Counted from the stretch's first letter, positions 262 to 63,752 are shown. The stretch: DNA of 64,000 nt from an uncultured Candidatus Saccharibacteria bacterium (GCA_964494765.1 CAZBRP010000008.1:4069-68068), one strand, 5' to 3'. Notes: generated by a model from the letters alone, not told the origin. Program-made: numbers and translations.

Positions 262-1197
262 TTACTTATCGAATCTTAATTTGATTACCTGCCTAAATAT
301 ACTCATAGCGTAGTCAATGTCGTCTTCAGACTTCACATATAACAAACTTACCGGTGTGTTTTTTGATTCGAAACTGTTCTTTTTATATGACACTAGTGAT
401 AAAGGATCGTTAACTGATTCGGGTCTAATTCCTGGTATATCCAATCGTAAAGAACCTACTTGTGGGTGAACATACACCAATGTATCCCAACCGTTTTCTC
501 GCAGCGAAAAGCCTATGTACCCTCCTCTAGGGTTTTCATTTATGTTAGGGTATACGGTTGATAACTTATCTTTGAAGGTTTCGTAGAGTGAATATGTGTC
601 ATTTTTTGCCCCTGTAAAATGGTCAGACACATTATAAACTTTCACTTCATTGCTAACTTTTTGAACAGTAAAATCTTTTGTAACTGTTTTTATGGATTCT
701 GTAGTTTCTTTAGCCCGCAGTTGATTGAATAGGACGCTATCATTTTCGTACTGTTTTACCTGCCATAATTCGATAGGCATATCCCTGAAATTGATAGCCT
801 GTTGCTGGTGGATAGTAAAAGATTGCGCAACAAAAATAACTCTTGATTGAGTCCAATCTACTTGCGCCTTTGTAAGGGTCTTGCCAGTCTGTTCGTTATA
901 GAGCAGAATAAATTCTGCTTTGTTATTAAGTAATAGGGCTAAGTAAGCGTAGCCCTGGTCAACGACACTAAAACTTCTATCTCGCTTATATTCAATTATT
1001 ACAAAAGCATTGCTGTTATCATCGTAGGCGACCGTATCAAGTCTTAACCCATTATGTTCAAATTCTGTAGCAACGAACCTTAAACCAAATACGACTTCAA
1101 GATTTTCCTCGCATAATTGCTGTATGTGCTTTTCTAGACTTATTTTGGTCTCAGAAATTTCTTTAAGTTTGCCGTCAGTATTCTTAAATAATGCCAT
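262..1197 (-). CDS. PD-(D/E)xK nuclease-like N-terminal domain (NucS/DUF91-like) with an uncharacterised C-terminal domain (DUF5655-like)
   Basis: 311-aa ORF. Nuclease-like core LDTVAYDD...AFVIIEYKRD (D...ExK). It lies last in the same-strand string after the type I R-M genes. Confidence 0.5.
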   Translation of the reverse strand: MALFKNTDGKLKEISETKISLEKHIQQLCEENLEVVFGLRFVATEFEHNGLRLDTVAYDDNSNAFVIIEYKRDRSFSVVDQGYAYLALLLNNKAEFILLYNEQTGKTLTKAQVDWTQSRVIFVAQSFTIHQQQAINFRDMPIELWQVKQYENDSVLFNQLRAKETTESIKTVTKDFTVQKVSNEVKVYNVSDHFTGAKNDTYSLYETFKDKLSTVYPNINENPRGGYIGFSLRENGWDTLVYVHPQVGSLRLDIPGIRPESVNDPLSLVSYKKNSFESKNTPVSLLYVKSEDDIDYAMSIFRQVIKLRFDK

Positions 1198-1256
1198 ATC
1201 TCAACTGTACTCCCCTTAATAACATGTCATAAATTATTGCCTTTATTAACATAATG

Positions 1257-1964
1257 CTACTCATCCACTAAATTAATGGTTTCATCAATATTCATCGAAT
1301 CTAGCATCAAATACAGAGATGTAACTGACATTTTTAGTTTGAATATACTAATCGCAATTATAGTCTTCGCGGCATCAGTCAAATCTTTTCTAATTGGATT
1401 TATTGCTAACACAAATTCGAGTTCTTTATAATCAGCACGAACCTCTAATAATTTTATTCTTACTTCTAACGGTAGCGCAAAAGAGTAGAGTTGCATTATT
1501 TGATCTATCTCATAAATATTGTTCCGAGACTCTGACATTAATCTAGTAGGTAAGTTTTTAAAGTCAAGATCCGTCCTTGTATGTTTAATATCTTTTAACA
1601 TTTTTACTAAATCTAGTGTTTTATTTTCATGGTCCTCAAAGGAGCGCATTTTATAGAATTCATTCGGATCCATTGGATGCCCATAGATTTTACCCATATC
1701 AAGAATAGTGCCATATATTGTTGTGTGTATATTTGACTTAGCCAAGCGGTAAGCCGGTTTTGTTTTGTCGGTTGTGTTCTTGTGTCTTACATACCCTACG
1801 AAAACTAATGCTACCGACGCGGTTATTAAACTCGCACTTAGATTTATCAGGAGGTCACCTACGAACTGATACTTACCAAAACAATACGCGAGTATCAATA
1901 ATAGTACTGAACTTAATGCGCTGAGTATTATCAACTGCTTATTTATACGGTCAAAGTAATTCAT
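1257..1964 (-). CDS. Hypothetical membrane protein with two N-terminal TM helices and a helical C-terminal domain
   Basis: 235-aa ORF. Hydrophobic segments LIILSALSSVLLLILAYCFG and LLINLSASLITASVALVFVGYV. No recognisable catalytic motif. Confidence 0.55.
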   Translation of the reverse strand: MNYFDRINKQLIILSALSSVLLLILAYCFGKYQFVGDLLINLSASLITASVALVFVGYVRHKNTTDKTKPAYRLAKSNIHTTIYGTILDMGKIYGHPMDPNEFYKMRSFEDHENKTLDLVKMLKDIKHTRTDLDFKNLPTRLMSESRNNIYEIDQIMQLYSFALPLEVRIKLLEVRADYKELEFVLAINPIRKDLTDAAKTIIAISIFKLKMSVTSLYLMLDSMNIDETINLVDE

Positions 1965-2002
1965 AATTTTTCGTAATCATAGGATAGTAAATGAGAGTTT
2001 TA

Positions 2003-4168
2003 TCATTTCAACATATCTCTCAATGCTACCGGTAGTTGATCCAATTTTTGCAACGTCGACTTATGTCCTGTTTCAAAACTCAGATAGGTTATTCCATTCT
2101 TATCAAACTTATCAAAGAATAATAATTCAAGGCGCATACATGTCTGACATTCCTCAAGCACGATAAATGGATCAAGGTTAAGATAACCACCATCTTCCCG
2201 CATTATTAATACCGCATCGGTTTTTATAGGCTTTACGGTCTGTCTGGTTTGAATACTGAAATGACTGTTATCTCCCATCAAATCGTAATATTCAACTTCA
2301 AATGAATCGTCATCAAAAGTTAATTTGGTGGATTTTGCGAGTTTGTATTTATATACAAAACCCAATAAATTAATCGTATCTGAAATAATGGGTCTTAAGT
2401 TATCAAAGTGACGCCGATATTCTAGGTCGGGCATAGCAGCGCCATGACCTAATAAATCGTTCCTGTCCCTGATAACATCGTGAAATGTCTCTGCGTATTT
2501 ACCCAAACGGACATCTTTTAGTTCAGATAAAAAGGGTTGAGCATCAGGTTGATTTTTTAGTTTTGTCAGCGCGAAAAATATGTTTACCCAATCGCCCAAT
2601 GCTGGTCGTTGAAGCCTATCTATACCCATCCCAGGGTCCTCGCCCATATTTAGTCGAGTAAGGTAGTCAGAAACATTGATAAGTGCAGTGTACTTTATTA
2701 GGCTTTCAAAGAGTTCGACTAAGATGCTGTATTTATCCTTGTAGGTCTGCGCGTTATCAAGTTTGCGTTGAACAATAGCGATTGGGAAAGGAAGTAATTG
2801 AGAGTACGACTCCTCTGCCTTTAAATATAAGCCTTTTAGATTTGCATTCAATGATTCGTAAATGAATGGATTAGATTCGAAGGATTTCTTAGTATTATCT
2901 ATTACACTAATTAGTTTTTCACTTAAGGCTTCCATCTCTTTGTATGCAGATGCTATGTTCCACTGTATCTCGAGTTCAGGGACAATAATCTCCAGTAAGC
3001 CTAAATCTTTAACGGAAATATAAGGAATGGTTGAGCCTTTTACAATTTTAGATAGCGCATTGGCTCCTATTTCCGAATCAAGGAAAGCAATAAAGTAATC
3101 GGGGTCAATACTTTCATTGAACGTAATGAAAATCGAGTTTTTCTCATTGACCGTATGGTCATCAGCCTTTTTTATGTTACTCCCGGTTTTATTGATAGCA
3201 ATTTGAGAAGAATTCTGTTTTTTACTAACACTAAATGAGGCGACCTCTTCTAGATTCATAACCTGATGCGAATAAGGAAGGTTTTTGAGTTGTTCCGTAT
3301 TATCAATGGGTTCGTGGTACTTATAATCCCATCTGTCAGTTGCATCAACTTCTGCTAGAAATCCTATTTTAGGCTTCCTACCTTCTCGTAACTCATTTAT
3401 TGCCTGTATAACATGATTTAATTCACTTAAGTCTTCAACTTCAATGAATAGCGTATTCACGATTCTTGTATTTTTTCTCAATACAATTAAAGACGTTTTG
3501 ACTCCTGTATATGGAGAAAAGGTAGCAGACGGCAAAGATACAATAGCCTCTAAGCCAAAGTTTTTTAGATAAAACTGTCTTAACTTTTTCTGCCTATCGC
3601 CGTATAGGAACACTTCTGGAAGGATCAATATTGCTTGGTCATTTGTGCCCTCATTTATTGCTTCGGCGAGTTTAGTATCAAAATCACCTTTTATGCCAAA
3701 TGGGGGTATTGTTACTACATTTTCAAATTGTGTACTTCCACGCCAAGAAGTAGGATCATCTGCGACTAGGGTGGAAACTTTCGCATTACCGATACTTATT
3801 AAACGGCAAAAGTTCAGCAATTCTTGATTAGGCTCGACTCCTGTATATTCGACTCCTTGCGTTAGTTCACCGTATCGCGAAAACAAGTTCAGCGTTTTAC
3901 CGGGAACTAATAAGGAAACCACTAATCGATTTATATCTTTTGGTGTATATGGACTTCCAGAGGCAACACGGTTGCCCATGCCTGTTCTGCTTATGAGCCG
4001 TGCAGCAATTTCCTTAAATTCCTCACTCTGATATTCCTCTTTAGTGAATAGTTCGAAACGACCTGATGTGTAATCCTCCAGAAGTGGTGTCGCTTCAAAA
4101 CCATAAGGCAGATTACTGCGATGAGTTTCAAATTTCTTCCAAAGTGATTGAGTTGAGATGTTAGTCAT
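2003..4168 (-). CDS. Degenerate N6-adenine methylase-like domain, one HsdS-like target-recognition domain, and a helical C-terminal domain with an Rx5H (HEPN-like) motif
   Basis: 721 aa. SPYTPKDINRLVVSLL resembles the HsdM pre-motif I. The motif-I position reads LNLFSRYGEL instead of DPxxGSGGFL. Motif IV reads TIPPFG instead of NPPF. KGSTIPYISVKDLGLLEIIVPELEIQ resembles an HsdS TRD/conserved-region junction. The C-terminus contains IRDRNDLLGHG. Its start overlaps the hsdR stop by 8 nt. Confidence 0.6.
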   Translation of the reverse strand: MTNISTQSLWKKFETHRSNLPYGFEATPLLEDYTSGRFELFTKEEYQSEEFKEIAARLISRTGMGNRVASGSPYTPKDINRLVVSLLVPGKTLNLFSRYGELTQGVEYTGVEPNQELLNFCRLISIGNAKVSTLVADDPTSWRGSTQFENVVTIPPFGIKGDFDTKLAEAINEGTNDQAILILPEVFLYGDRQKKLRQFYLKNFGLEAIVSLPSATFSPYTGVKTSLIVLRKNTRIVNTLFIEVEDLSELNHVIQAINELREGRKPKIGFLAEVDATDRWDYKYHEPIDNTEQLKNLPYSHQVMNLEEVASFSVSKKQNSSQIAINKTGSNIKKADDHTVNEKNSIFITFNESIDPDYFIAFLDSEIGANALSKIVKGSTIPYISVKDLGLLEIIVPELEIQWNIASAYKEMEALSEKLISVIDNTKKSFESNPFIYESLNANLKGLYLKAEESYSQLLPFPIAIVQRKLDNAQTYKDKYSILVELFESLIKYTALINVSDYLTRLNMGEDPGMGIDRLQRPALGDWVNIFFALTKLKNQPDAQPFLSELKDVRLGKYAETFHDVIRDRNDLLGHGAAMPDLEYRRHFDNLRPIISDTINLLGFVYKYKLAKSTKLTFDDDSFEVEYYDLMGDNSHFSIQTRQTVKPIKTDAVLIMREDGGYLNLDPFIVLEECQTCMRLELLFFDKFDKNGITYLSFETGHKSTLQKLDQLPVALRDMLK

Positions 4169-6533
4169 TTATAGATACCGCCATATACAACTCACGTTGC
4201 AATTCCAGATAATCACTAACAATTTCTTCTGGTGACCCAAGATGCTTTATCGCATCAGGCATAGTGCGGTACTTAAGTTGCACTAATCCTCTTAAGTTCT
4301 CCATAGATAATTCATTCTCACCTGATTTTTCGTAGGTATCAAGTACAAAGGTCACGAAGTCCCGTTCATCTTCTTCTAGTTGGTCCAAATAGTAATCACG
4401 TATAATTCCAGCCCTTTCGTGTCGCGACATCGTCTCACGAGCGTAGGAAATGTATCGTAGAACGTCATATACATCACTATCCTCGGCGTCTACAAGTTCT
4501 TTCAACTTCTGTAGTTTTTCTTCATCGAAACCACGTTCCGCTAAGCCTTGCAGTAAGGCTTTGCGAGTGCGAGGATCAGACCATTGTTTCTGCAGGTCCT
4601 CTTCTGAAATATAAAATTCTGGCAACTTCCCATAGATTAGTTCCAAGAATTCGGCAGGACCTACGGGCTTTCCGTCCATATAGAATTGAGTCTCTACACT
4701 GTATTTAATTAATCTGCTTTTACCGTCTGCCAACCGAACAACGGTTTTCTGTTTTCTTTCCGTAGCATCAGGCTGTTCCTCACCGGTCCAGTCATTTTCT
4801 GGCTTATCTGTGTCTCCGCCTTCTTCATCGCCGCGTACAGCAGGACCCGCAGTAGTGGGCTCGGTAGGCACTCCAACATCAGTAGTGTCGATTTCGGTAG
4901 GATCGCCATCCCATTCAGGGTCTTCAAACTTCGTCTCATTACCGTAAAAATCTACAATCGTAAAATAATCTTTGCCATCATATATTCGCGTACCGCGTCC
5001 AATAATTTGCTTGAACTCGACCATACTGCCTACGTTGCGCATGAGAACGATAAACCTGACATTCCTAGCATCTACGCCAGTAGATAATTTTCGGCTAGTC
5101 GTTACAATGGTCGGGATTTGGCGTTCGTTATCTCGGAATTCCCTTAATCGCTGGTCACCTAACTCTTTTTCGCTAGCAGTAATCCTAACGCAATAGTTTG
5201 CGTTATCGCCAAGCGTGCCCTCTGGTTTGTACTTGTTTACCGCATCTCGCACCATCGCAGCATGCTTCTCGTCATTGCAGAATACAATTGTCTTTTGATT
5301 AGGATTAATCTGCTCGAGCATGATTTGAACCATTTTCTCTTCACGCTCTGGTAGATAAATCTTATTGTTAAAGTCACTCAAGGTATATTCACGTTCTTTA
5401 TCTACTTCGCCGCTCTCCACTAAATCGTAGGGGTGGAATATGTAGCGGTCCATAGTAGTTGTAACTCGTTTAACTTTAAACGGAGTTAGGAACCCATCCT
5501 CAATGCCTTCCTTTAAGGAGTAGGTGTATCGTGGGTTACCAAAGTAGGCATACGTATCAACGTTGTCATCTCTTTTGGGCGTTGCGGTAAGCCCAAGATG
5601 AGTTGCACCCGTGAAATGATCCAGGACAGCACGCCAGTTGCTTTCATTGCCTGCGCCACCACGGTGACATTCATCAATTATCACCAAGTCAAAAAAATCC
5701 GCGGGGTAATCTTTAAAATATGGGTTTTCTAGTGGTCCGCCAGTCATCGCTTGATAAATACTGAAAAATACATTGCCATTCGTTGGAATTTTTCCTGCCT
5801 TACGGACAGCCTCACCATTAATACGAACAATCTCGTCTTCGAGAGGATTAAAGTCGCCCATGGCTTGCTCTACAAGGACATTACGGTCGGCAAGAAAGAG
5901 CACACGAGGACGACGACCATCACCCTTCTTATCCCAACGTGCCTGGTATAGTTTCCAAACAATCTGAAAAGCGATTGTCGTTTTACCCGTACCCGTTGCT
6001 AGCGTCAGTAATACGCGGTTATCACCGGCTACAATCGACTCTATGGCTCGATTAACCGCATTCTCTTGATAATAGCGAGGGTTGAATTTGCTTCGCTGAA
6101 AAGGTTCAGTAAGAACTGTTTTTTGAGCCTCACTGTAACCCTCAAAAGTTTTGCCGAATAATTCATCTGGTGTGTGATAAGAATCTACATTCTCACCACG
6201 CCCTTTTTTCATATCGAAGAAATAAATACCATGACCGTTAGTACTGTATACAAACCGAATATTCAGGGACTCTGCGTATGCTTTGACTTGCTCAAGTCCA
6301 TCAGTTATCTCTTTATCTTCAGATTTTGCCTCTACGATAGCCATTTTTAAGTTTTTGTAAGCCAGTACGTAATCAGCCTTTTTTTGACGACCACGTTGTC
6401 CGGCACCAATTAAACGTCCATCAGTGAAAATATATTCAGCAATGACTTGCGAGCCAACTGTTTCATTCATGCCCCACCTGGCATCACGAATTTGAGGATC
6501 AATTAATTCACGTCGTGTAGTGGCTTCATTCAT
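4161..6533 (-). CDS. hsdR: Type I restriction enzyme R subunit
   Basis: 790 aa. N-terminal EATTRRELIDPQIRDARWG, Walker A LATGTGKT and a DEAH-type box IIDECHRG. The C-terminal region (DVYDVLRYISY) resembles the EcoEI R C-terminal domain. Confidence 0.9.
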   Translation of the reverse strand: MNEATTRRELIDPQIRDARWGMNETVGSQVIAEYIFTDGRLIGAGQRGRQKKADYVLAYKNLKMAIVEAKSEDKEITDGLEQVKAYAESLNIRFVYSTNGHGIYFFDMKKGRGENVDSYHTPDELFGKTFEGYSEAQKTVLTEPFQRSKFNPRYYQENAVNRAIESIVAGDNRVLLTLATGTGKTTIAFQIVWKLYQARWDKKGDGRRPRVLFLADRNVLVEQAMGDFNPLEDEIVRINGEAVRKAGKIPTNGNVFFSIYQAMTGGPLENPYFKDYPADFFDLVIIDECHRGGAGNESNWRAVLDHFTGATHLGLTATPKRDDNVDTYAYFGNPRYTYSLKEGIEDGFLTPFKVKRVTTTMDRYIFHPYDLVESGEVDKEREYTLSDFNNKIYLPEREEKMVQIMLEQINPNQKTIVFCNDEKHAAMVRDAVNKYKPEGTLGDNANYCVRITASEKELGDQRLREFRDNERQIPTIVTTSRKLSTGVDARNVRFIVLMRNVGSMVEFKQIIGRGTRIYDGKDYFTIVDFYGNETKFEDPEWDGDPTEIDTTDVGVPTEPTTAGPAVRGDEEGGDTDKPENDWTGEEQPDATERKQKTVVRLADGKSRLIKYSVETQFYMDGKPVGPAEFLELIYGKLPEFYISEEDLQKQWSDPRTRKALLQGLAERGFDEEKLQKLKELVDAEDSDVYDVLRYISYARETMSRHERAGIIRDYYLDQLEEDERDFVTFVLDTYEKSGENELSMENLRGLVQLKYRTMPDAIKHLGSPEEIVSDYLELQRELYMAVSIND

Positions 6534-6538
6534 AATGA

Positions 6539-7714
6539 TTATTTTACATCACTGCTAGAGAATGTACGTAATAGCATAGATTTTTTTAGAGCTCTTAAAT
6601 TTTTCATTTTTTCATCATATAAATGCACTAGTTCGGTCGTATTAGTGTGTGCTATTTCAATTTTTGATGAAATACTTTCCTGCACATCCAGTGGCGGTAT
6701 TAGAATATTTTGGTCTTTGAATATTTTATGGGTAATGTCAGGTTGTGCAGCACGAGAGGCAAGTTTAGTAATATTTTTTCTGAATTCTTTATCCTGTAAC
6801 CACCAATACAGATAGTTTTTAGAAAGTGTTGAGTCGGGAGATATTTTGAAACTATTATTATGCAGAATTCCGTAACGGTTCCTGAAGACTAATCCAATCT
6901 GTCCGGTGCGCGTATATATCAAATCATCGGGCATAACCAACGCTTTTTTTGGAAAGTTTTCTTCATCGACGAACTGTTCAGCACTACCCGATCTAAGGTC
7001 TTTTATTCTGAGAAGTGGAAGACTACTTTGCTGAACGAGTAGGTGTTTGGTCTTGGCATTTATAGCAAGTCCTTGCGCTAACTCGCAGACTTCTCCAATT
7101 TTTTTCTGGATCCAAAGCGACGAGTCAGCGCGCAATAGTGCTGAAGTTACGTTGTCAAACAATAATAAGGTATCCTCTCGACTAGTATCTGTCATATCAA
7201 CAGATAAGTTTATTTTTTCAAAAGCAGCGTCCAATTTCCTTACAATTTCTTTTTGCTCGTCGAGTGATTCATCGTAATGTATTACATACTCACCGATAGA
7301 CGCCCTTGGAAGTTCTGTTTGTCCACTCGTACCGGTAGCCATGCCGATAAAATCGTCTTCACACATACTAAATAAATAAGCCAGATAGCGCGGAATAAAC
7401 AAACCCGGCTTAGTGCGGATAATGGTGATGTGTGAATCGACCGACATTTTACTGACAACATCATTAACTAATGCTGTTCGACCTAATGTTCCTTGTCCGG
7501 TGGAGTTAATCAAGATATCTCCCGGCTTAAGGAGTTTTGTTTGCGAGACAGGTTTCAATGCAGAATCATGACGCCGGCTAAATTCGTATGATATTTTATG
7601 GTTACGTATACACCTTTGATTCAAAACGACCAAGCCGCTGGTTTCGTCCGTATACTTCGGCGATATTCCTCGCGTTATAATTTCACAGATATCTTTAAGT
7701 TGAGCAGATTTCAT
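6539..7714 (-). CDS. hsdS: Type I R-M specificity subunit
   Basis: 391 aa, located between hsdM and hsdR. Two variable halves are each followed by a helical conserved region (QKEIVRKLDAAFEKI; QESISSKIEIAHTNTTELVHLYDEKMKNLRALKKSML). Confidence 0.85.
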   Translation of the reverse strand: MKSAQLKDICEIITRGISPKYTDETSGLVVLNQRCIRNHKISYEFSRRHDSALKPVSQTKLLKPGDILINSTGQGTLGRTALVNDVVSKMSVDSHITIIRTKPGLFIPRYLAYLFSMCEDDFIGMATGTSGQTELPRASIGEYVIHYDESLDEQKEIVRKLDAAFEKINLSVDMTDTSREDTLLLFDNVTSALLRADSSLWIQKKIGEVCELAQGLAINAKTKHLLVQQSSLPLLRIKDLRSGSAEQFVDEENFPKKALVMPDDLIYTRTGQIGLVFRNRYGILHNNSFKISPDSTLSKNYLYWWLQDKEFRKNITKLASRAAQPDITHKIFKDQNILIPPLDVQESISSKIEIAHTNTTELVHLYDEKMKNLRALKKSMLLRTFSSSDVK

Positions 7715-9178
7715 CTAAACTTCTAGACCAGCAAGAATCTCTGCGACTCTTGCATCTATTTTTTTTATATCCTCAAGAATATTTTTTGGGTCTTTCAACT
7801 CCTCCGATTCTTCAACAAAAGGATTTCTCACTCCAAGGTCGGCAGAAGTTTTATCAATATCATTAATAGAAATTGTCCAACTATGGTCACTCTGCTCTCT
7901 GCTCTTGTACTTTTCTACAAAATCATACATGTCAGAAATATTTAGTGGTGCAGTCTTACCGAGCGCTCGGTCCACTTTCAACTGATAGTAAAATATCTCC
8001 TTAGTTGGTGCACCCTTTCGAAAAAATAATACGACTGTCTTGACACCTGTAGATCCTGTAGCGCTGAATACGCCACTGGGTAGGTCTAGAATAGTATGCA
8101 AATCAAAATTATCTAAAAGATGACGACGAATAGCGCCCGATGCGCCCGATGGCTCATTAGTTAGAAATGTGTTTTTTATTATAATTGCCGCTTCTCCACC
8201 AACACGAAGTTTTTTCATAAAATGCTGTAGAAAAAGGCTTGCTGTTTCTCGTGTTTTTACGTCAAAATTACGTTGAATTTCTGGATGTTCATTTCCCCCA
8301 AATGGCGGATTGGCTAAAATATAATCGTAACGATCCTTTTCTTGAATATCATGTGTGTCTTCTGTAAGAGTGTTGGTGTGAACCATATTTGGTGATTCGA
8401 TACCATGAAGAATCATATTCATTGTTCCAAGTAGATATGGTTCAGGATTCTTATTTTTACCAAAAAAGGTACTCTCTTTGAGAAACCTCAGTTCCGTAGG
8501 TGTTCCTGCCTTTTCGCGTAAGAATGCATAACTTTCGGTCAGGAAGCCCGCGGAACCCGCAGCACCATCGTAGATGGTTTTGCCTAGTTCAGGATCAATC
8601 GCTCTAATCATTGCCTGGATAAGTGGGCGTGGCGTGTAATACTCGCCGCTTCGACCAGCACCACCCATAAGTTTGAGACGATCCTCATATAGCGCAGAAA
8701 GTTCATCGAGTTCTTCCTGGGTTTTAAAATCTAACTTGTCAATTATATCGATAACTTCTCGGAGATTACGCCCGCTTTGAATCTTGTTGCCGACTTCACC
8801 AAAAATTTCACCAATTTTATAGAGTAAAGATTTAGGGTCCTGGGCTGTATTCTTAAATTCTTTCAGATATGGAAATAATTTTTGATTTACAAATTCGATT
8901 AAATCCTCGCCCGTAACTCGAGCATTGAGGTCTGGTGATCCATCCGTAAGTTTCTGCGCAGCCCAGTTATCCCATTGGAATTCGTCTTTGAAGAGCGGTT
9001 CATATTGTTTGCTTGAGAAGACCGCTTCCTGTTTTCTGATGTCTTCTAAATCGTCTAGGTATTTAAGGAAGAGTATCCATGACATTTGTGCCATATAGTC
9101 GTTGGCGCCGTTAGTACCAGCATCCTCAAAAAGTATATTATCTATTCTTTTAAATTCATTTTGTAATTTTGTTGACAT
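7715..9178 (-). CDS. hsdM: Type I R-M N6-adenine DNA methyltransferase subunit
   Basis: 487 aa. Motif I IYDGAAGSAGFL and motif IV ILANPPFGG, with an HsdM N-terminal helical domain. Its stop abuts the hsdS start. Confidence 0.9.
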   Translation of the reverse strand: MSTKLQNEFKRIDNILFEDAGTNGANDYMAQMSWILFLKYLDDLEDIRKQEAVFSSKQYEPLFKDEFQWDNWAAQKLTDGSPDLNARVTGEDLIEFVNQKLFPYLKEFKNTAQDPKSLLYKIGEIFGEVGNKIQSGRNLREVIDIIDKLDFKTQEELDELSALYEDRLKLMGGAGRSGEYYTPRPLIQAMIRAIDPELGKTIYDGAAGSAGFLTESYAFLREKAGTPTELRFLKESTFFGKNKNPEPYLLGTMNMILHGIESPNMVHTNTLTEDTHDIQEKDRYDYILANPPFGGNEHPEIQRNFDVKTRETASLFLQHFMKKLRVGGEAAIIIKNTFLTNEPSGASGAIRRHLLDNFDLHTILDLPSGVFSATGSTGVKTVVLFFRKGAPTKEIFYYQLKVDRALGKTAPLNISDMYDFVEKYKSREQSDHSWTISINDIDKTSADLGVRNPFVEESEELKDPKNILEDIKKIDARVAEILAGLEV

Positions 9179-9761: not shown

Positions 9762-11450
9762 ATGGATGAGTTGAGCAAACAACAACAACTGCTAGAGATG
9801 CTTAAGGGCGGTGACTCAAATGAGGATACACTAGATAAGCAAAAAGTAAGGTATGCACTTTATGCTCGTAAATCAACTACAGGAGATGAAAAGCAGTCGT
9901 CATCTATCGAGGACCAGGTCCGGGATTGTATTGACCGTGTTATTGAACCGCAGGGTCTGAATTTAGTTGCGACCTACGAGGAGAAGTTTTCTGCCAAAGA
10001 GGCTGACACGCGCGAAGAATTTAAGCGACTCATAAACGATATTCAGCGTGGCAGGATAGACGGAGTGATTGCCTGGCATCCGGACCGGCTATCGCGGAAT
10101 ATGAAAGAGGCAGGTACGATTATTGACCTCGTTGATAAGGGTTCAATCAAGGATCTACAGTTTGCTACCTTCACTTTTGAGAATAACCCCGCAGGTAAGA
10201 TGTTACTCGGCATTACGTTCGTAATGGCAAAACAGTACTCGGAACACCTCAGCGAGTCGGTAGATAGAGGAAATCGCAGGGCTATTGAGGATGGAGAGTT
10301 TATCGGAAAATTCAAACATGGATACGTAATAGACGCTGAACGCCATTTCCAGCCCGACCCCGATAGTTTCATAAAGATTAAGCATATGTTCGAGATGGCG
10401 CTTGCTCGTAAATCTCAAAAAGAAATAAGGCTGTGGATCAATGAGCAGGACTACAAGGTCCAAAAGAAACAAGGAGCAGATCCAGTAGGTCATAAATGGA
10501 GCAAGGATGATGTGTCTGAACTCTTACGAGACTCTCATTATGCGGGTGTACACAAATGGGGTAAGAACTTAATTGCCATAGCAGAATTCTACGAGTTCCA
10601 GCCGATGATAACCGTTGACCAGTTTCTGGAAATTAATAAAATAGATAGCCTCAATTCTTCTAAGGTCCTGGCGCTGAGGCGACCGAGGACCGAAACAAGA
10701 GCGGACTTTCTAAGGGGCGTTGTCTACTGCGGACACTGCCACAAGACTCTGACATCAATGCTAATCGATAAAAAGAAAGATGGTGCGATAGTCAGTTCAA
10801 GGTATTACTACAAATGCGAAACGGCGGGTTGTGAAATGGAGGGTAAGTCCGCCCGTGCCAAGTACGTGATAGATGCTGCACAAGAATTTCTGGCAACTTA
10901 CCTATTTGTTAACAAATCGAACTATGCAACCTTTCTAAAGAGCGCAAAAGCCCAGATAAAACGCACCCAACACGACATAGACTCGGCGATTGCAAAACTA
11001 ACAAAGGACATCGCGAATAAGCAGTCTGCATACGAGAATATAAAGAGACTAATAGAAAGAGACGAGGCTGGCACACTTAAGCGGCATTATGACCTTGATG
11101 AAATATTGGCTGCTGTAACCGATATGCAAGAGCGACACGCTAAATTGGTACAGATGCGCAGGGATGCACCGAACGCACTGCCTACATTCGAGGAATATCT
11201 CAAACTATTTGAATCGACCTCTGTTATTTTGGGCAAAATACGCGATATGAAGCAGATGGACGCATTCATCAGGATTTTCTTCTCTAACTTTACAATTACA
11301 GCTACCGGAGAAGACTTCAGACGGGGGTCAACAGTAGTGTATAAACTAAACGAACCCTATGAAGGGTTCGTTAAAAATGGTGATTTCGTTCTTGGTGCGG
11401 GTCAGGGGACTCTAACCCCTGGCCTCATCCTTGGCAAGGATGCGCTCTAA
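9762..11450 (+). CDS. Large serine recombinase (integrase type)
   Basis: 562 aa. Resolvase catalytic domain YALYARKSTTGDEKQSSSIEDQ and DRLSRN, then a recombinase domain, a Cys-rich zinc ribbon (CGHCHK...YYKCETAGC) and a coiled-coil. The last 58 nt overlap tRNA-Gly on the opposite strand. Confidence 0.9.
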   Translation: MDELSKQQQLLEMLKGGDSNEDTLDKQKVRYALYARKSTTGDEKQSSSIEDQVRDCIDRVIEPQGLNLVATYEEKFSAKEADTREEFKRLINDIQRGRIDGVIAWHPDRLSRNMKEAGTIIDLVDKGSIKDLQFATFTFENNPAGKMLLGITFVMAKQYSEHLSESVDRGNRRAIEDGEFIGKFKHGYVIDAERHFQPDPDSFIKIKHMFEMALARKSQKEIRLWINEQDYKVQKKQGADPVGHKWSKDDVSELLRDSHYAGVHKWGKNLIAIAEFYEFQPMITVDQFLEINKIDSLNSSKVLALRRPRTETRADFLRGVVYCGHCHKTLTSMLIDKKKDGAIVSSRYYYKCETAGCEMEGKSARAKYVIDAAQEFLATYLFVNKSNYATFLKSAKAQIKRTQHDIDSAIAKLTKDIANKQSAYENIKRLIERDEAGTLKRHYDLDEILAAVTDMQERHAKLVQMRRDAPNALPTFEEYLKLFESTSVILGKIRDMKQMDAFIRIFFSNFTITATGEDFRRGSTVVYKLNEPYEGFVKNGDFVLGAGQGTLTPGLILGKDAL

Positions 11451-11469
11451 ACAACTGAGCTAGACCCGC
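11393..11469 (-). tRNA. tRNA-Gly (anticodon GCC), CCA encoded
   Basis: Hand-folded cloverleaf: GCGGGTC/GACCCGC acceptor, GCTC/GAGC D stem, CATCC-TTGCCAA-GGATG anticodon arm, AGGGG-TTAGAGT-CCCCT T arm, then ACCA. The T loop (A at position 56) and D loop (T at position 19) are atypical but can pair with each other. Confidence 0.8.
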
Positions 11470-58723: not shown

Positions 58724-58758
58724 AAACACGCCTTTCGGAGATATGAAAGGCGTGTTTT
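58724..58758. terminator. Bidirectional rho-independent terminator between uvrA and the convergent gene
   Basis: Perfect 13-bp stem aaacacgcctttc/gaaaggcgtgttt with an 8-nt loop. Confidence 0.75.
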
Positions 58759-58815: not shown

Positions 58816-59388
58816 TTATGCAGCGGCCAAGGCAATGTCAGCAAGTGCTTCTTGAGAAGGGGCGGCTTCGGAGGAAACCAAATCACGCAGGTGGTTGCGT
58901 ACTTTTGAGCGAATCAAAATATTGTCGTGAATATTCAACGAATAATCAATTTTAGAAGCATTATTGAGATAACGCAGGGCAGAGCCAATAGACTGCTTGT
59001 CGCCACGCGTTAAATTAGAAATCGAGAAATTGTGCAAACGACTGGCAATGATACGCTGTGAAAACGTATCAACATCGTCCGCGAAAGAAGGCAATTCGTT
59101 CAAAATGATAGGTTTTGACTTTTGCATTGCATACATAATCTGCAACGCAAGCTCGCGCGAAATAATGCCGTAGTCACAGTACACAACATGGAAAGAATTG
59201 TTGGCAATTGACTCGTACACGTTAATACGAAAATCGTGGCTGTGCCAAGGGTTAGACTGGTGTTCGGTGCTTAAAAAATCTGGCTCAAGATCTAAAAGCG
59301 CCACCTGCACTTGTTGCTCTTCGAGGATACGCTTAAGCGCGGCCATTTTAGTTTGATTATTTCCACTAATCTGAGTAACAAGATGCAT
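58816..59388 (-). CDS. Distant DNPH1/nucleoside 2-deoxyribosyltransferase-like domain protein (no RHH tail)
   Basis: The core SFHVVYCDYGIISRELALQIMYAMQKSKPIIL follows the pattern (beta-strand)-x-G..E(L/I)(G/A)...KP(I/V)L seen in the five genes downstream of folE. Confidence 0.5.
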   Translation of the reverse strand: MHLVTQISGNNQTKMAALKRILEEQQVQVALLDLEPDFLSTEHQSNPWHSHDFRINVYESIANNSFHVVYCDYGIISRELALQIMYAMQKSKPIILNELPSFADDVDTFSQRIIASRLHNFSISNLTRGDKQSIGSALRYLNNASKIDYSLNIHDNILIRSKVRNHLRDLVSSEAAPSQEALADIALAAA

Positions 59389-59416
59389 GACGAATCACCT
59401 ATTTACGTTATACGCA

Positions 59417-59449
59417 TAGTATACACATAATCACCGAATGTGTATACTA
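59417..59449. promoter_or_regulatory. Perfect 11-bp inverted repeat (tagtatacaca, 11 nt spacer, tgtgtatacta) in the divergent intergenic region; candidate operator or paired -10 boxes
   Basis: Each arm contains TATAC(T) when read outward toward the flanking gene. A related tagtatacaaa occurs at 60806-60816. Confidence 0.4.
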
Positions 59450-59541
59450 AATATTAATGATCTCTAGGCTTTTTGTTTTGACGGTTATTTATGATATGGT
59501 GTATATTCCACATTAGAGATGTGTGTTTTTAGAGAGATGCG

Positions 59542-60093
59542 ATGAATAAAACAAACGTTGAAAAGCTGATTTACCGATTATTGTCGGAGCTTGAGAGTAA
59601 TCCCGACAGGGAAGGACTCTGGGACACCCCGAGCCGTGTAGCTAAGGCATATGCTGAGACTTTAAGCGGCTACGATAGGTCACTTGCTAGTGAGATGACT
59701 GTATTTAAGAATGAGTATGGCTATAAGGACATAATCTATTCAGGAAAAATTAACTTTTACTCAACATGCGAGCACCACCTCCTGCCTTTTTTCGGTGAGG
59801 CGCACATTGCCTATATCCCCAAAGATAAAATAGCAGGAATAAGTAAGCTCGCCAGGGCAATTGATATTTTTGCACGTCGCCTGCAGGAGCAGGAGCGTAT
59901 AACTGTACAGGTAGCGAACGAGCTAGAAAAAGTATTAGAACCCCTAGGGGTCGCTGTTATGCTTAATGCAAAGCACTTTTGCAATATGTCTAGAGGAGTT
60001 CACCAGCAGGACTTTGAGCTCAAGACCTTTGCTTATCGCGGTAACTTTGCTGATAGCACCGAGTTGAAGTCGCATTTCTTGAGGCTTATGTAA
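59542..60093 (+). CDS. folE: GTP cyclohydrolase I (FolE type)
   Basis: STCEHHLLPF zinc/active-site motif and QERLT-like QERITVQ. 183 aa. Confidence 0.9.
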   Translation: MNKTNVEKLIYRLLSELESNPDREGLWDTPSRVAKAYAETLSGYDRSLASEMTVFKNEYGYKDIIYSGKINFYSTCEHHLLPFFGEAHIAYIPKDKIAGISKLARAIDIFARRLQEQERITVQVANELEKVLEPLGVAVMLNAKHFCNMSRGVHQQDFELKTFAYRGNFADSTELKSHFLRLM

Positions 60094-60188
60094 TTAGATC
60101 TCAAATCCTTAAGTTACACAACGATTGTCACAAATTTGGCGTATTACTTTTCTTCTTGTGAAAACAAGGATGCTATGTTAGAAACATG

Positions 60189-60197
60189 TGATAGAAT
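60189..60197 (+). promoter_or_regulatory. Extended -10 TGaTAGAAT 11 nt upstream of ATG 60209
   Basis: catgTGATAGAATaggaactgattATG. Confidence 0.4.
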
Positions 60198-60208
60198 AGG
60201 AACTGATT

Positions 60209-60799
60209 ATGATAATACACTTTATTGCAGCCAAGGGAAGTATAGTTCGGGAAATCGATAATTACAGAGAGATTGTTAAATATATTAAGGATAGTGGCCA
60301 TAGCTTGGCTCGTGACTGGGTTGAGGATTACTATAAGTTTGCTAAGGGCAGCAGCGCAGCTGAGGAGAGTGAGACACAAGTTGACTGGGGCAAGATGGAC
60401 GTTGAGAATATGGCGGCCATCTCAAAGGCAGATATAATTATCGCTGAGGCGACTGAACGCAGTTTTTTTGTTGGCTACCAAGTCGCTCAAGCAGTTAACC
60501 AGAAAAAGCCAGTTCTAATCCTTGCTAGAGGCCAGACCTTTGCTGGTGTTCACGACCTCCATGTATCTTCTGATTTCATGAAAGGCAAGGTCTACACTCC
60601 AGAGACGTTGAAGCAGATTATAGACGCATTTATTAGTGAAAATACGATCGAAAATAAAGACCTACGCTTCAACTTCTTTATTGACCGTAAAATATATAAC
60701 TACTTGAGGTGGGCATCATTCAAGACTGGTAAGACTAAGGCGGAAATTCTCCGCGATCTAGTACAACATGAGATTGAGCAGCAGGATTACCACCCTTAA
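60209..60799 (+). CDS. DNPH1/Rcl-like (nucleoside 2-deoxyribosyltransferase superfamily) domain fused to a C-terminal ribbon-helix-helix-like tail; array member 1 (GYQ variant)
   Basis: MIIHFIAAKGS...LARDWVE...ADIIIAEATERSFFVGYQVAQAVNQKKPVLILAR. Compare DNPH1 ADVVVAEVTQPSLGVGYELGRAVALGKPILCLFR (recalled from memory). C-terminus RFNFFIDRKIYNYLRWASFKTGKTKAEILRDLVQHEI. Confidence 0.7.
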   Translation: MIIHFIAAKGSIVREIDNYREIVKYIKDSGHSLARDWVEDYYKFAKGSSAAEESETQVDWGKMDVENMAAISKADIIIAEATERSFFVGYQVAQAVNQKKPVLILARGQTFAGVHDLHVSSDFMKGKVYTPETLKQIIDAFISENTIENKDLRFNFFIDRKIYNYLRWASFKTGKTKAEILRDLVQHEIEQQDYHP

Positions 60800-60893
60800 G
60801 AGTTTTAGTATACAAAATACTTCACAAAAACTAACCTTCTAGTATAATACGTAATTATCTGTATAAATCGTCATATGACGCTAGGAGCTTTTA

Positions 60894-61490
60894 GTGATCG
60901 TACATATTGGAGGCGGTGCCCGCTCACTGGGTGATGATCTGCCTTACCTTCGCAAAATTATTGATGTTGTCCGCGAGGGTGGTGACGAAATCTCGCGAAA
61001 CTGGATAGAAATAACTAACCACAACGTGACGGTTAAAGAAATAAAGCCAGAGCAAGTTGACTGGAAAGATATTGCCAGCCAGAACAAATTAGCGCTTGCT
61101 CGTGCTGACGTATACATCGCGGATGTTACGGCATACAGGCTTTCAAACGGTTATGAACTTGCCCAGGCCCTACAGCAAAACAAGCCTGTGCTATTAGTAG
61201 CGCGCAAGTCGTTTAAGCAGTTTGCTATTTCTGGTGTCCAGAATGATCTGCTTACCATGCAAGAATATTCTACCCAGGAAGAGCTTAGCGAAATTGTTGC
61301 GAAATTTTTAGAGCAAAATAGAATACCTACAGACCTGAAAACTGTTGAAATTCCTCTGGATTTAGAACTGTATAGGTATATAAAACAACAAGAAACTAAC
61401 ACTGGCAGGGCAACTAGTGATATCCTGTACGAGCTCGCCAAAAGGGGGCTTAAAAAAGACTTAACAACAGTAAAGGATATGCCATGTTAG
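60894..61490 (+). CDS. DNPH1/Rcl-like domain plus RHH-like tail; array member 2 (GYE retained)
   Basis: GTG start with AGGAG 6 nt upstream. ADVYIADVTAYRLSNGYELAQALQQNKPVLLVAR. C-terminus VEIPLDLELYRYIKQQETNTGRATSDILYELAKRGL. Confidence 0.7.
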   Translation: MIVHIGGGARSLGDDLPYLRKIIDVVREGGDEISRNWIEITNHNVTVKEIKPEQVDWKDIASQNKLALARADVYIADVTAYRLSNGYELAQALQQNKPVLLVARKSFKQFAISGVQNDLLTMQEYSTQEELSEIVAKFLEQNRIPTDLKTVEIPLDLELYRYIKQQETNTGRATSDILYELAKRGLKKDLTTVKDMPC

Positions 61491-62053
61491 TTCACTTAAC
61501 CGGTAGTGCGCGAAATCTACAAAATGATCTTCAATTTTTACGTGCAATAACCCAAGCAATTCATGAATCTGATTCGAGTCTGGCCCGCAACTGGATTGAA
61601 GCAGCGGCTAACCGCGTTTTACGCGGTGGTCTGCCCGACAGGGAAGTTGACTGGACGCATGTAATTGACGATAACGAGCGCGCCGTGCGTGATGCTGATG
61701 TTTTAGTTGTTGAAGCATCAACCGGTGGCTTCTTGCTTGGTTACGAAGTATGCTACGCACTATCCCTCAACAAGCCGATACTCATTGTTAGCCGCCCTGA
61801 CGTAAGGGCACGGGCACTTTACGGTTTAAAGGACAGGGAAATAGAGATCAAGGAATATACTACCGAGCGTGAGCTTTATAAGATCGTTAGGGCATTTATT
61901 AGCGAGCACACAGTTCCCGAGCAAAGCGTTGAGCAGGCGATACCTGTGACCCCAGCTCTTCATCGATATCTTGAGGCTGAATACAAGAAGACTAACTTAG
62001 ACAAGTCAGAGATTTTGTTAGCTCTTGCGGAGCGTGGGCTTAACAGCAAATAG
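61484..62053 (+). CDS. DNPH1/Rcl-like domain plus RHH-like tail; array member 3 (GYE retained)
   Basis: 7-nt overlap with member 2. ADVLVVEASTGGFLLGYEVCYALSLNKPILIVSR. C-terminus IPVTPALHRYLEAEYKKTNLDKSEILLALAERGL. Confidence 0.7.
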   Translation: MLVHLTGSARNLQNDLQFLRAITQAIHESDSSLARNWIEAAANRVLRGGLPDREVDWTHVIDDNERAVRDADVLVVEASTGGFLLGYEVCYALSLNKPILIVSRPDVRARALYGLKDREIEIKEYTTERELYKIVRAFISEHTVPEQSVEQAIPVTPALHRYLEAEYKKTNLDKSEILLALAERGLNSK

Positions 62054-62060
62054 GATATAT

Positions 62061-62636
62061 ATGGTCATTCATTTAGTTTCAAGTTTCAGGCAATGGAATG
62101 GTAATTTTGAGTTTTTAGAGAAAATTGTAGAAACAGTTCACCAAAATAATGGTGAGTTAGCGCGAAATTGGCTGGATTTGGTAGCCGCAAAGGTAAAGAA
62201 TGACACACTCATTAAGGAGAACTGGAAGCAGGTAGTTCAAGAGAACATTGAAGCTATTGCTCGCTGCGATGCCGTAATTGTCGAGGCTAGTGATTACGGA
62301 TTTTTGGATGGCTTTCAGATGGCAACTGCTCTTCGATACGACAAGCCCATTCTAGTAGTTGGTAGGATAAGCTTAGACGACTGGGCGATATCTGGGCTAA
62401 AAAGTGAATCAGTGATTATCGAGCAATATCAGAATAAGGAAGAACTGGAGCAGTTAGTTGTCAACTTCTTGAGTAGCGATATGGTTGCCGCTCAACCAGA
62501 GGTAAAAACAGCCCTAGGTCCACAGTTATATGAAGCAGTGCGCAGCGCGGCAACCAGAGCCGGGGTTAGCGAATCGCAGGCGCTGCGTGATCTCGCGCGA
62601 GCTGGACTGGAAGCAACGACTACATCAGGCAAATAG
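62061..62636 (+). CDS. DNPH1/Rcl-like domain plus RHH-like tail; array member 4 (GFQ variant)
   Basis: Start set to ATG 62061 (MVIHLVSS, parallel to the other members). CDAVIVEASDYGFLDGFQMATALRYDKPILVVGR. C-terminus ALGPQLYEAVRSAATRAGVSESQALRDLARAGL. Confidence 0.68.
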   Translation: MVIHLVSSFRQWNGNFEFLEKIVETVHQNNGELARNWLDLVAAKVKNDTLIKENWKQVVQENIEAIARCDAVIVEASDYGFLDGFQMATALRYDKPILVVGRISLDDWAISGLKSESVIIEQYQNKEELEQLVVNFLSSDMVAAQPEVKTALGPQLYEAVRSAATRAGVSESQALRDLARAGLEATTTSGK

Positions 62637-62704
62637 ACTCAATCTGTATAACTGGTATTTACACACGCTAAAGGGGTGCTATAATCAGGGCTTGGAGTCT
62701 TTTT

Positions 62705-63271
62705 ATGATTATTCATCTTACAGGTAGTGCACACAACATCGAAAAAGATATGCCTTTTTATAGAAGGATGATTCAGGTTATTCACGAGAGTGACGGCATT
62801 CTTGCACGAGACTGGCTTGAGACAGCATTTCATAGCCGAAGCAAAAAAGGCAGTGCTAGTGACGAAGAGGCAGTATCTGACGCTGATCTTGCAGCTATTA
62901 GCCGTTCCGACATTGTGATTATAGACATCACTCACCATGCTTTTTCGCAAGGTTTTCAATCTGCAATAGCTATCAACCAAAAGAAGCCGCTGCTTCTTGT
63001 TTCGCGTACGCCAATTAAAAAGCATGCTATTTCTGGCTACAAGAGCAAGCTGCTTACTACTGCTGAGTACAAAACCGAGGAAGATTTAGACAAGATTGTT
63101 AAGGACTTTATTGTTGCTAACACTATTGCAACTAAAGACCTGCGATTTAACATGTTTATCGATCGTCCAATTTATAACTATTTGCGCAGTGTTTCTTACG
63201 AGTCGGGCAAGAATAAGTCTGAGATTATTCGTGAGCTTATTGAGCGCGAAATCCGTAAGCAAAAAGATTAG
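62705..63271 (+). CDS. DNPH1/Rcl-like domain plus RHH-like tail; array member 5 (GFQ variant)
   Basis: TGcTATAAT at 62677-62685 and GGAG 7 nt upstream of the ATG. SDIVIIDITHHAFSQGFQSAIAINQKKPLLLVSR. C-terminus RFNMFIDRPIYNYLRSVSYESGKNKSEIIRELIEREI. Confidence 0.7.
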   Translation: MIIHLTGSAHNIEKDMPFYRRMIQVIHESDGILARDWLETAFHSRSKKGSASDEEAVSDADLAAISRSDIVIIDITHHAFSQGFQSAIAINQKKPLLLVSRTPIKKHAISGYKSKLLTTAEYKTEEDLDKIVKDFIVANTIATKDLRFNMFIDRPIYNYLRSVSYESGKNKSEIIRELIEREIRKQKD

Positions 63272-63407: not shown

Positions 63408-63752
63408 CTAGTCAAAAGTAATATGGCAAGGTTCGCGGCAGCACCGAATGGTGTAGCCGGCAATGTACTGTGTGAGCGCCTTGGGCGGTGAAAAATTGCC
63501 TTGTGGGCTATTTTTAAGGCTCCTGTGGCTTTCTGGTATCCTGTGTGCGTAATTATGTGGCTTGGTGTCTGGCACAGACAGCGCAAGGCCACAGAAGGCG
63601 CAGGCGCGGCCCTGCAGTTGGTCTTCTGTGAGTAGCTGCTTGAGCCTTGTGTGCCAGTATACCCAGGCGGTGTCGTTAAGAAAGAGTGTGTCATGAAAGT
63701 GGTATGAGTACCATTCGGCCGCCGCATCGTCCATAGTTAATAATAATTGCAT
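63408..63752 (-). CDS. Small Cys/His-rich protein, possible HNH-like nuclease
   Basis: CAFCG...HNYAHRIP...CCREPCH spacing is reminiscent of an HNH/zinc-finger nuclease. A second long ORF (63356..63727) overlaps in another frame, so the coding frame is uncertain. Confidence 0.3.
   Translation of the reverse strand: MQLLLTMDDAAAEWYSYHFHDTLFLNDTAWVYWHTRLKQLLTEDQLQGRACAFCGLALSVPDTKPHNYAHRIPESHRSLKNSPQGNFSPPKALTQYIAGYTIRCCREPCHITFD

Follow-up and report, generated by a model that had tools for sequence, protein, structure and literature searches.

What role could five consecutive, mutually related genes on one strand play in a member of the Saccharibacteria? The question is raised by positions 58,816 to 63,271 of a 64,000-nucleotide stretch of DNA (GCA_964494765.1, CAZBRP010000008.1:4069-68068), here called the window, whose source genome belongs to Candidatus Saccharimonadales. 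The tandem genes, W1 to W5, follow a GTP cyclohydrolase I gene (folE), on the other side of which a further gene, orfA, is transcribed divergently. All seven open reading frames (ORFs) lie where a preliminary description of the window had placed them. Saccharibacteria, like other bacteria of the candidate phyla radiation (CPR), are obligate episymbionts with reduced genomes, and most of their lineage-specific proteins are annotated as "hypothetical". They are unable to make nucleotides and possess very few recognisable transcription factors. We infer, with about an even chance of being right, that the five genes encode nucleotide-binding repressors that regulate orfA and themselves, each combining a sensor derived from the nucleotide N-hydrolase DNPH1 with a ribbon-helix-helix (RHH) DNA-binding tail.

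The five proteins are collinear paralogs, as had been proposed, with pairwise identities of 23-42%. The sequence motifs listed for them are present, except that VDW is missing in W5. A profile of the five paralogs retrieves DNPH1/Rcl from the PDB at E = 2e-8, in an alignment that runs through the GSxR phosphate loop, the aDvvv.E strand, G(Y/F)(E/Q) and KP.L..R. The DNPH1 peptide that the preliminary description had quoted matches PDB entry 4fyh residue for residue in the HMMER alignment. The fold search leads to the same family: with the AlphaFold2 (AF2) model of W5 as query (122 homologues; predicted local distance difference test score, pLDDT, 86.5), the best 50 Foldseek matches in the PDB are all DNPH1/Rcl, with E-values down to 6e-7 and TM-scores normalised to the target (TMt) of 0.7-0.8. 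The assignment of the N-terminal domain as DNPH1/Rcl-like is thus borne out by both sequence profile and fold. The scores of W1-W5 against the Pfam model PF05014 (Nuc_deoxyrib_tr) are 12.8-17.8 bits (E 0.004-0.13), below the gathering cut-off of 28.8 bits, and a few homologues carry a precomputed match to that model.

Residue conservation was assessed in 130 full-length representatives of the family at 50% identity. The Ser of the G-S-x-R phosphate loop is kept in 85 of them and the Arg is partly conserved; W1 lacks the loop and has A-A-x-G instead. Conservation of S-G at positions 113-114 is also partial. The other conserved positions are two Trp, the aD motif, the Gly preceding Y/F, K-P-x-L and a Tyr at position 125.

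An RHH tail had been proposed for each of the five paralogs, and Pfam and PDB profile matches of the family tails support it. Among 35 non-redundant tails, 21 match RHH_1 (best E 4.4e-6) and 13 match RHH_3 (best E 2.3e-5); SeqA_N and RepB-RCR_reg are the other Pfam models matched. A tail profile searched against the PDB matches the SeqA N-domain, the best single hit, and residues 3-44 of NikR. The individual Pfam values in the window include 0.0056 for W2 (SeqA_N) and 0.042 for W4 (RHH_1). In the AF2 model of W5 the tail comprises helices 154-167 and 171-187 after an extended segment, and the strand segment is of low confidence in this monomer model (mean pLDDT 60 for block 141-150). Conservation along the protein peaks in the tail and not in the pocket; the tail consensus is KDLRFN(M/F)FIDRxIYNYLRxxSYETGKNKSEIIRELIEREI. 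Of the five paralogs, W1 and W5 have the canonical strand for reading DNA, R-x-N-x-F, whereas the strands of W2, W3 and W4 are divergent. By analogy to classical RHH proteins, the alternating Arg and Asn of the canonical strand L-R-F-N-M-F-I and the helix-2 cap G-K-N-K-S-E presumably correspond to the DNA-contacting positions of Arc, CopG and NikR.

The pocket has followed a different course. The catalytic positions of DNPH1, which we take to be Y13, D69 and E93 in the rat enzyme (Y24, D80 and E104 in the human one), are consistent with the mutant names in PDB entries. At the nucleophile position the 130 representatives have Gln in 84 cases (65%), Glu in 10 (8%), Leu in 10, and Tyr, Phe or Met in some others. 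Asp is almost never found at the Asp position, which is mostly occupied by Asn, Ser, Val or Thr; at the Tyr position, 74 representatives have His, 20 Tyr and 16 Phe. Because the catalytic Tyr/Asp/Glu are mostly replaced by His/Asn/Gln, most family members are, as judged from these residues, pseudoenzymes, and the family has the appearance of a pseudoenzyme domain for nucleotide binding joined to a DNA-binding module under strong constraint. Some members, a minority, may have retained catalysis.

The likeliest alternative is that the proteins are active enzymes. As nucleotide N-glycosidases or deoxyribosyltransferases they might cleanse or salvage the (deoxy)nucleoside monophosphate, (d)NMP, pool of a nucleotide-auxotrophic episymbiont, with the RHH tail serving only for oligomerisation or for tethering to DNA. 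DNPH1 is, after all, the closest relative by sequence and fold, the GYE motif is kept in W2 and W3, the genes for which such an activity is mainly plausible, and the family's neighbours include NUDIX, Ham1, HAD and nucleotide kinase genes. The tail's best single PDB match is likewise compatible with this view, the SeqA N-domain being an RHH-like oligomerisation module that does not bind DNA. Moreover, in one related locus (L003:5361-6209, plus strand) two adjacent tail-less members of 140 and 141 aa, which adjoin NUDIX and thymidylate kinase genes, keep GYE, and one of them keeps the Tyr also; these may resemble enzyme-competent ancestors of the fusion family. As an account of the array, however, active catalysis is unlikely. 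Gln replaces Glu in three of the five window genes and in the majority of representatives, other members have Leu, Tyr, Phe or Met there, and Asp and Tyr are scarce at the remaining two positions. E-to-Q and D-to-N are the very changes that yield inactive substrate traps in structural work on DNPH1 and nucleoside deoxyribosyltransferases (NDT), as the names of PDB entries indicate. Finally, conservation is concentrated in the tail rather than in the pocket.

The fusion is not peculiar to the window. An exhaustive HMMER search of 1.84 billion representatives gave 1728 clusters (50% identity) at E ≤ 1e-3, with 819 of them at E ≤ 1e-10. Of the 1728 representatives, the best 150 are almost all full-length, at ~190 aa, so that among these the fusion of the two domains is the rule. 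The family has no name, Pfam model or NCBIfam model. All 49 related genome loci and all named protein matches are from Saccharibacteria, and the family has so far been seen only there (Saccharimonadales). In these 49 species-level loci, which form the comparative set, the copy number ranges from one to four, and the single copy, found in ~28, is the commonest state. The fivefold array, for whose combination with folE the preliminary description knew of no described system, is real and the largest seen, but it is not unique in kind, as arrays of two to four copies occur in related genomes. Because arrays of similar subtype order exist in relatives (e.g. L010), the array predates this species.

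If the W proteins bind DNA, candidate sites are to be found at the neighbouring gene orfA. This gene had been counted as a sixth, more distant member of the group without the tail, divergent from folE; the divergent arrangement and the lack of a complete RHH tail hold, and the relationship is supported, not proven. In hhalign, orfA and the family align with a probability of 84% and E = 7e-6 over 59 core columns (the W...aD...KKP.L region), and the best non-self matches of an orfA hidden Markov model are family members (E 1.3e-5). The orfA product has neither the second RHH helix nor the catalytic residues. Its AF2 model, built from an 8-sequence alignment, is of medium confidence (pLDDT 76.6) and shows a flavodoxin-like alpha/beta domain. 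The Foldseek matches of this model are weak and not decisive, with NDT and DNPH1 (TMt 0.5-0.6) alongside ArsH and receiver domains, and a sequence search of the PDB with orfA gave no match. Homologues of orfA are present in ~21 of the 49 loci, in at least three different contexts.

The region upstream of orfA contains a conserved palindromic element. The half-site TGTGTATA, with at most one mismatch, lies at a constant distance from the orfA ATG in 19 of 21 upstream regions, and in at least 8 of the 21 it is part of a 17-bp palindrome, TGTGTATA-N-TATACACA, centred on the TATAAT (-10) box. The 8-mer TGTGTATA was counted 21 times in 9.4 kb of orfA and family upstream DNA, against 5 copies in the remaining intergenic DNA (55 kb) and 21 in coding DNA (796 kb), an enrichment of ~25-fold over other intergenic DNA; TACACAA occurs at 1.41 per kb upstream of family genes and at 0.15 per kb in other intergenic DNA (~9-fold); and inverted repeats with a TGTRYA core are present in 10 of 74 orfA and family upstream regions and in none of 353 other intergenic regions, all these enrichment figures being optimistic in that the motif cores were defined after inspection of the same upstream regions. 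When a position weight matrix (PWM) of the palindrome was run over 861 kb, 14 of the 28 best matches sat 22-26 nt upstream of orfA start codons, a position that the palindrome takes in at least 14 loci. The positional constancy of the half-site at orfA is striking despite the post hoc choice of motif. In the window, the inverted repeat at 59417-59449 has its arms on the two hexamers, -35-like and -10-like, of the putative orfA promoter (minus strand, TATACA-17-TATACT). From an RHH repressor and its operator one would expect this combination, a reading strand that hardly varies and a conserved palindrome close by.

Other motif analyses were less informative. A de novo k-mer search of the family-gene upstream regions returned weak AT-rich signals only, and the spacing of GTATAC pairs was uninformative. 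GTATAC-containing palindromes, e.g. GTATACATAC-N6-GTATGTATAC, were also observed at L010:10993-11018 and L011:6116-6154, in intergenic DNA not directly upstream of family genes or orfA; they may belong to the same regulon or be unrelated. The L026 locus, which has no recognisable orfA, contains a good match to the orfA-type palindrome at 5871-5887 (PWM score 17.3), 16 nt ahead of an unannotated gene of 281 aa that directly follows the family gene.

The orfA palindrome might instead be the site of an unrelated regulator encoded elsewhere, such as a LexA-type SOS repressor, with the fusion proteins having other DNA targets or none. This second alternative has somewhat poorer prospects than active catalysis. 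It draws on the resemblance of TGTGTATA-N-TATACACA to the E. coli SOS box, CTGT-N8-ACAG, on the position of orfA next to uvrA in most loci with RuvA as a frequent neighbour, and on the absence of the full palindrome from most family-gene promoters. However, the PWM detects no convincing site at any of 26 uvrA promoters, a result on which the SOS-box idea was rejected, and the distance from TGT to ACA is 7 rather than 8. Related TACACA(A) half-sites are, in addition, enriched upstream of the family genes themselves. The near-invariant RHH strand implies a conserved target, and the palindrome is the only conserved site found within ~10 kb.

Among the functions suggested in the preliminary description, a bank of nucleotide-sensing repressors fits best, given the Gln in W1, W4, W5 and most representatives and the conserved palindromic sites on adjacent promoters. 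In such a system the RHH tails would pair into dimers, and the DNPH1-like domains, which are dimeric in DNPH1, would join two RHH dimers into a NikR-like build. The assembly would bind paired TACACA-type half-sites on the promoters of orfA and the family genes, and a nucleoside monophosphate-like ligand in the former active site would modulate DNA binding. The tandem paralogs could then supply different ligand and operator specificities.

Several observations weigh against nucleotide-sensing repressors. The Glu nucleophile is kept in W2, W3 and ~8% of the family, some members keep the Tyr too, and such Glu-keeping proteins may in part be enzymes. The palindrome is clear at the orfA promoters and not consistent at those of the family, where a match with at most one mismatch was found at 21 of 64; the protein that binds it could be encoded elsewhere, and the motifs were chosen by inspection. 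Five tandem regulators are also many for a genome of roughly 1 Mb. A broader proposal is more tentative still, possible rather than probable: that Saccharibacteria evolved their own class of one-component regulators from a DNPH1 pseudoenzyme and an RHH domain, that the paralog arrays sense different host-derived (d)NMPs or damaged or modified nucleotides, and that TACACA-type operators control orfA together with the variable nucleotide-handling genes inserted at the locus (folE, NUDIX, kinases, methyltransferases).

The genomic neighbourhood bears on the place of folE in this arrangement. The family genes usually lie downstream of uvrA, and the commonest order is uvrA(+), orfA(-), one or two variable genes, the family gene or genes (+), a gene for a VTT-domain protein (-), the gene for ribosomal protein L25 and two ABC exporters. 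In a second context the family gene is accompanied by HAD/PRTase, SIS and PRK-family genes. The variable genes (n = 74) include 15 S-adenosylmethionine-dependent methyltransferases, 7 RuvA, 6 NUDIX, 4 CYTH and 4 HAD hydrolases. Nucleotide-handling neighbours are frequent, namely NUDIX, CYTH, HAD, thymidylate and guanylate kinases and Ham1.

The preliminary description had treated folE as part of the system, a view that the comparison does not sustain. Among the 49 species-level loci, folE as a conserved partner was rejected: beyond the window it is nearby only in L038, where it and the family gene are direct divergent neighbours, and in L026. Because folE is near the family in 3 of ~50 loci, where about one co-location would be expected by chance for a single-copy gene, because its arrangement differs each time, and because queC, queD and queE are absent from the 64-kb window, folE looks like an incidental occupant of a variable slot rather than a functional partner. 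In the L026 locus a compact minus-strand cluster (275-4060) comprises queE-like, queD (PTPS), folE, Ham1, queC and thymidylate kinase genes and is transcribed away from a lone family gene; because of this cluster the pathway to preQ0 (7-deazaguanine) is, on gene content, encoded by some Saccharibacteria.

It is very improbable that the array and folE form a nucleotide-centred conflict system (anti-phage or toxin-antitoxin), with folE feeding 7-deazaguanine or pterin chemistry: the NDT/TIR/SLOG-type fold does recur in defence effectors, a TIR protein is among the weak viral fold matches in BFVD, the L026 que cluster adjoins a family gene and the window includes a type I restriction-modification system at another site, but this reading is largely refuted by the comparative data, since PADLOC gave one chance-level match (E 0.016) and nothing else, the PHROGs, the viral contig scan and the BFVD fold search held nothing specific (no meaningful PHROG match, no relatives on viral contigs), the linkage to folE is not conserved, and the family sits in a conserved housekeeping context (uvrA to L25 and the ABC exporters), not on a mobile island.

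The features of the locus are listed in Table 1. The folE product matches PF01227 (GTP_cyclohydroI) at E 3.9e-62 and scores 193.7 bits against TIGR00063, above the equivalog cut-off of 181.6. W2 and W3 overlap by 7 nt and W4 begins 8 nt past the end of W3, with its start in the public gene call at ATG 62061 and not at the upstream TTG 62025. With sigma-70-like promoters that are strong ahead of W2 and W5 and weaker ahead of folE, the organisation suggests three transcription units, folE(-W1), W2-W3-W4 and W5. The W2 and W5 promoters have the TCTGTATAA element in common. The extended -10 sequence GGTGCTATAAT (62677-62685), ~20 nt upstream of the W5 start, is kept in the W5 orthologues of five related loci (L006-L009 and L013).

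Table 1. Genes and candidate regulatory features of the W locus and of the restriction-modification block in the window. Residues in parentheses are those at the catalytic Tyr/Asp/Glu positions of DNPH1.
Feature	Position	Strand	Description
N6-methylase-like gene	2003-4168	-	Additional to the type I restriction-modification genes
hsdR	4161-6533	-	Type I restriction-modification
hsdS	6539-7714	-	Type I restriction-modification
hsdM	7715-9178	-	Type I restriction-modification
Hairpin	58724..58757		13-bp perfect arms; between convergent uvrA and orfA; terminator-like on minus strand
orfA	58816-59388	-	190 aa; tail-less distant relative of the DNPH1-like domain; conserved partner gene
Inverted repeat	59417..59449		Perfect, 12 bp, TAGTATACACAT-N9-ATGTGTATACTA; orfA-folE spacer; candidate operator
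folE promoter-like site	59478..59507	+	TTGACG-18-TATATT; 10/12 matches
folE	59542-60093	+	GTP cyclohydrolase I; variable occupant of the locus
Inverted repeat	60113..60133		Imperfect, GTTACACAAcgaTTGTCACAA; upstream of W1; candidate operator, TACACAA type
W1	60209-60799	+	DNPH1-like domain (His/Asn/Gln); canonical RHH tail (KDLRFNFFIDR...)
W2 promoter-like site	60821..60848	+	TTCACA-16-TATAAT; strong; from promoter scan
TCTGTATAA element	60858-60866		After the W2 promoter-like site
W2	60894-61490	+	GTG start; DNPH1-like domain keeping GYE (His/Asn/Glu); divergent RHH tail
W3	61484-62053	+	DNPH1-like domain keeping GYE (His/Asn/Glu); divergent RHH tail
W4	62061-62636	+	DNPH1-like domain (His/Asn/Gln); divergent RHH tail
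W5 promoter region	62643..62685	+	TCTGTATA-N7-TTTACACA overlapping the -35 hexamer, then extended -10 (TGcTATAAT)
W5	62705-63271	+	DNPH1-like domain (His/Asp/Gln); canonical RHH tail; most widely conserved orthologue type

Two further features of the window were observed. Directly downstream of W5, a 114-aa ORF (63408-63752, minus strand) shows a CxxC ... H-N-x-x-H-like pattern that recalls small HNH nucleases, and neither Pfam nor PHROG gives a match for it. The type I restriction-modification system occupies a low-GC block on the minus strand (2003-9178; 0.35-0.40 versus ~0.48 elsewhere) near tRNA-Gly (11393-11469), and this block may be an acquired island.

The family matters in the context of how Saccharibacteria and other CPR bacteria regulate nucleotide scavenging. 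For a large family without annotation (1728 clusters), the domains now have a concrete and testable assignment, and an operator and a regulated partner gene can be proposed. If the W proteins are indeed nucleotide-sensing repressors, they would constitute a lineage-specific sensory system for an episymbiotic lifestyle, and the DNPH1 fold would join the enzyme folds that have been recycled as sensor domains. Any members that prove active would instead represent DNA-tethered sanitisers of nucleotides, of DNPH1 type, in bacteria. Since the nucleophile position varies naturally between Gln and Glu, the family supplies ready material for comparing binding with catalysis, a point of interest given that DNPH1 is a drug target.

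No relevant literature was found on DNPH1 or deoxyribosyltransferases with ribbon-helix-helix domains, or on either term with Saccharibacteria. The combination of DNPH1 pseudoenzyme and RHH domain appears to be undescribed, as do its confinement to Saccharibacteria, its expansion in tandem and the candidate operator at orfA. Neither domain is new, and regulators that sense through an enzyme-derived domain have precedents in NikR, PutA and Bacillus subtilis PurR.

With DNPH1/Rcl, a 2'-deoxynucleoside 5'-phosphate N-hydrolase of the flavodoxin-like nucleoside 2-deoxyribosyltransferase fold (PF05014 clan), the W family has the fold and collinear motifs in common, and a Ser-Gly at the position of the trans-subunit phosphate Ser is partly conserved. 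In contrast to DNPH1, it has two near-invariant, family-specific Trp, a mostly replaced catalytic triad, PF05014 scores below the gathering cut-off and an additional C-terminal RHH domain of ~45 aa. The N-domain of SeqA is the best individual PDB or Pfam match for some tails; unlike SeqA, the canonical W tails have Arg and Asn on that side of the strand which is predicted to face DNA. PurR of B. subtilis senses phosphoribosyl pyrophosphate through a pseudoenzyme domain of the phosphoribosyltransferase fold, and PutA combines an RHH domain with an enzyme. The same logic would apply to the W family, namely reuse of an enzyme fold, its catalysis lost or kept, as the sensor of a one-component DNA-binding regulator. 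However, the sensor fold differs from both, the DNA-binding domain differs from that of PurR as well, and no homology of the W family to PurR or PutA was detected. NikR resembles the proposed arrangement in that it pairs an RHH domain with an oligomerisation domain that binds a small ligand. The NikR tetramer binds two half-sites separated by a spacer, and the candidate operators described here likewise consist of paired half-sites, with spacers of N1, N3 or N9. The two differ in that the domain order is reversed, the RHH domain being C-terminal in the W family, and in that the W sensor has the DNPH1 fold, whereas that of NikR is an ACT-like metal-binding domain.

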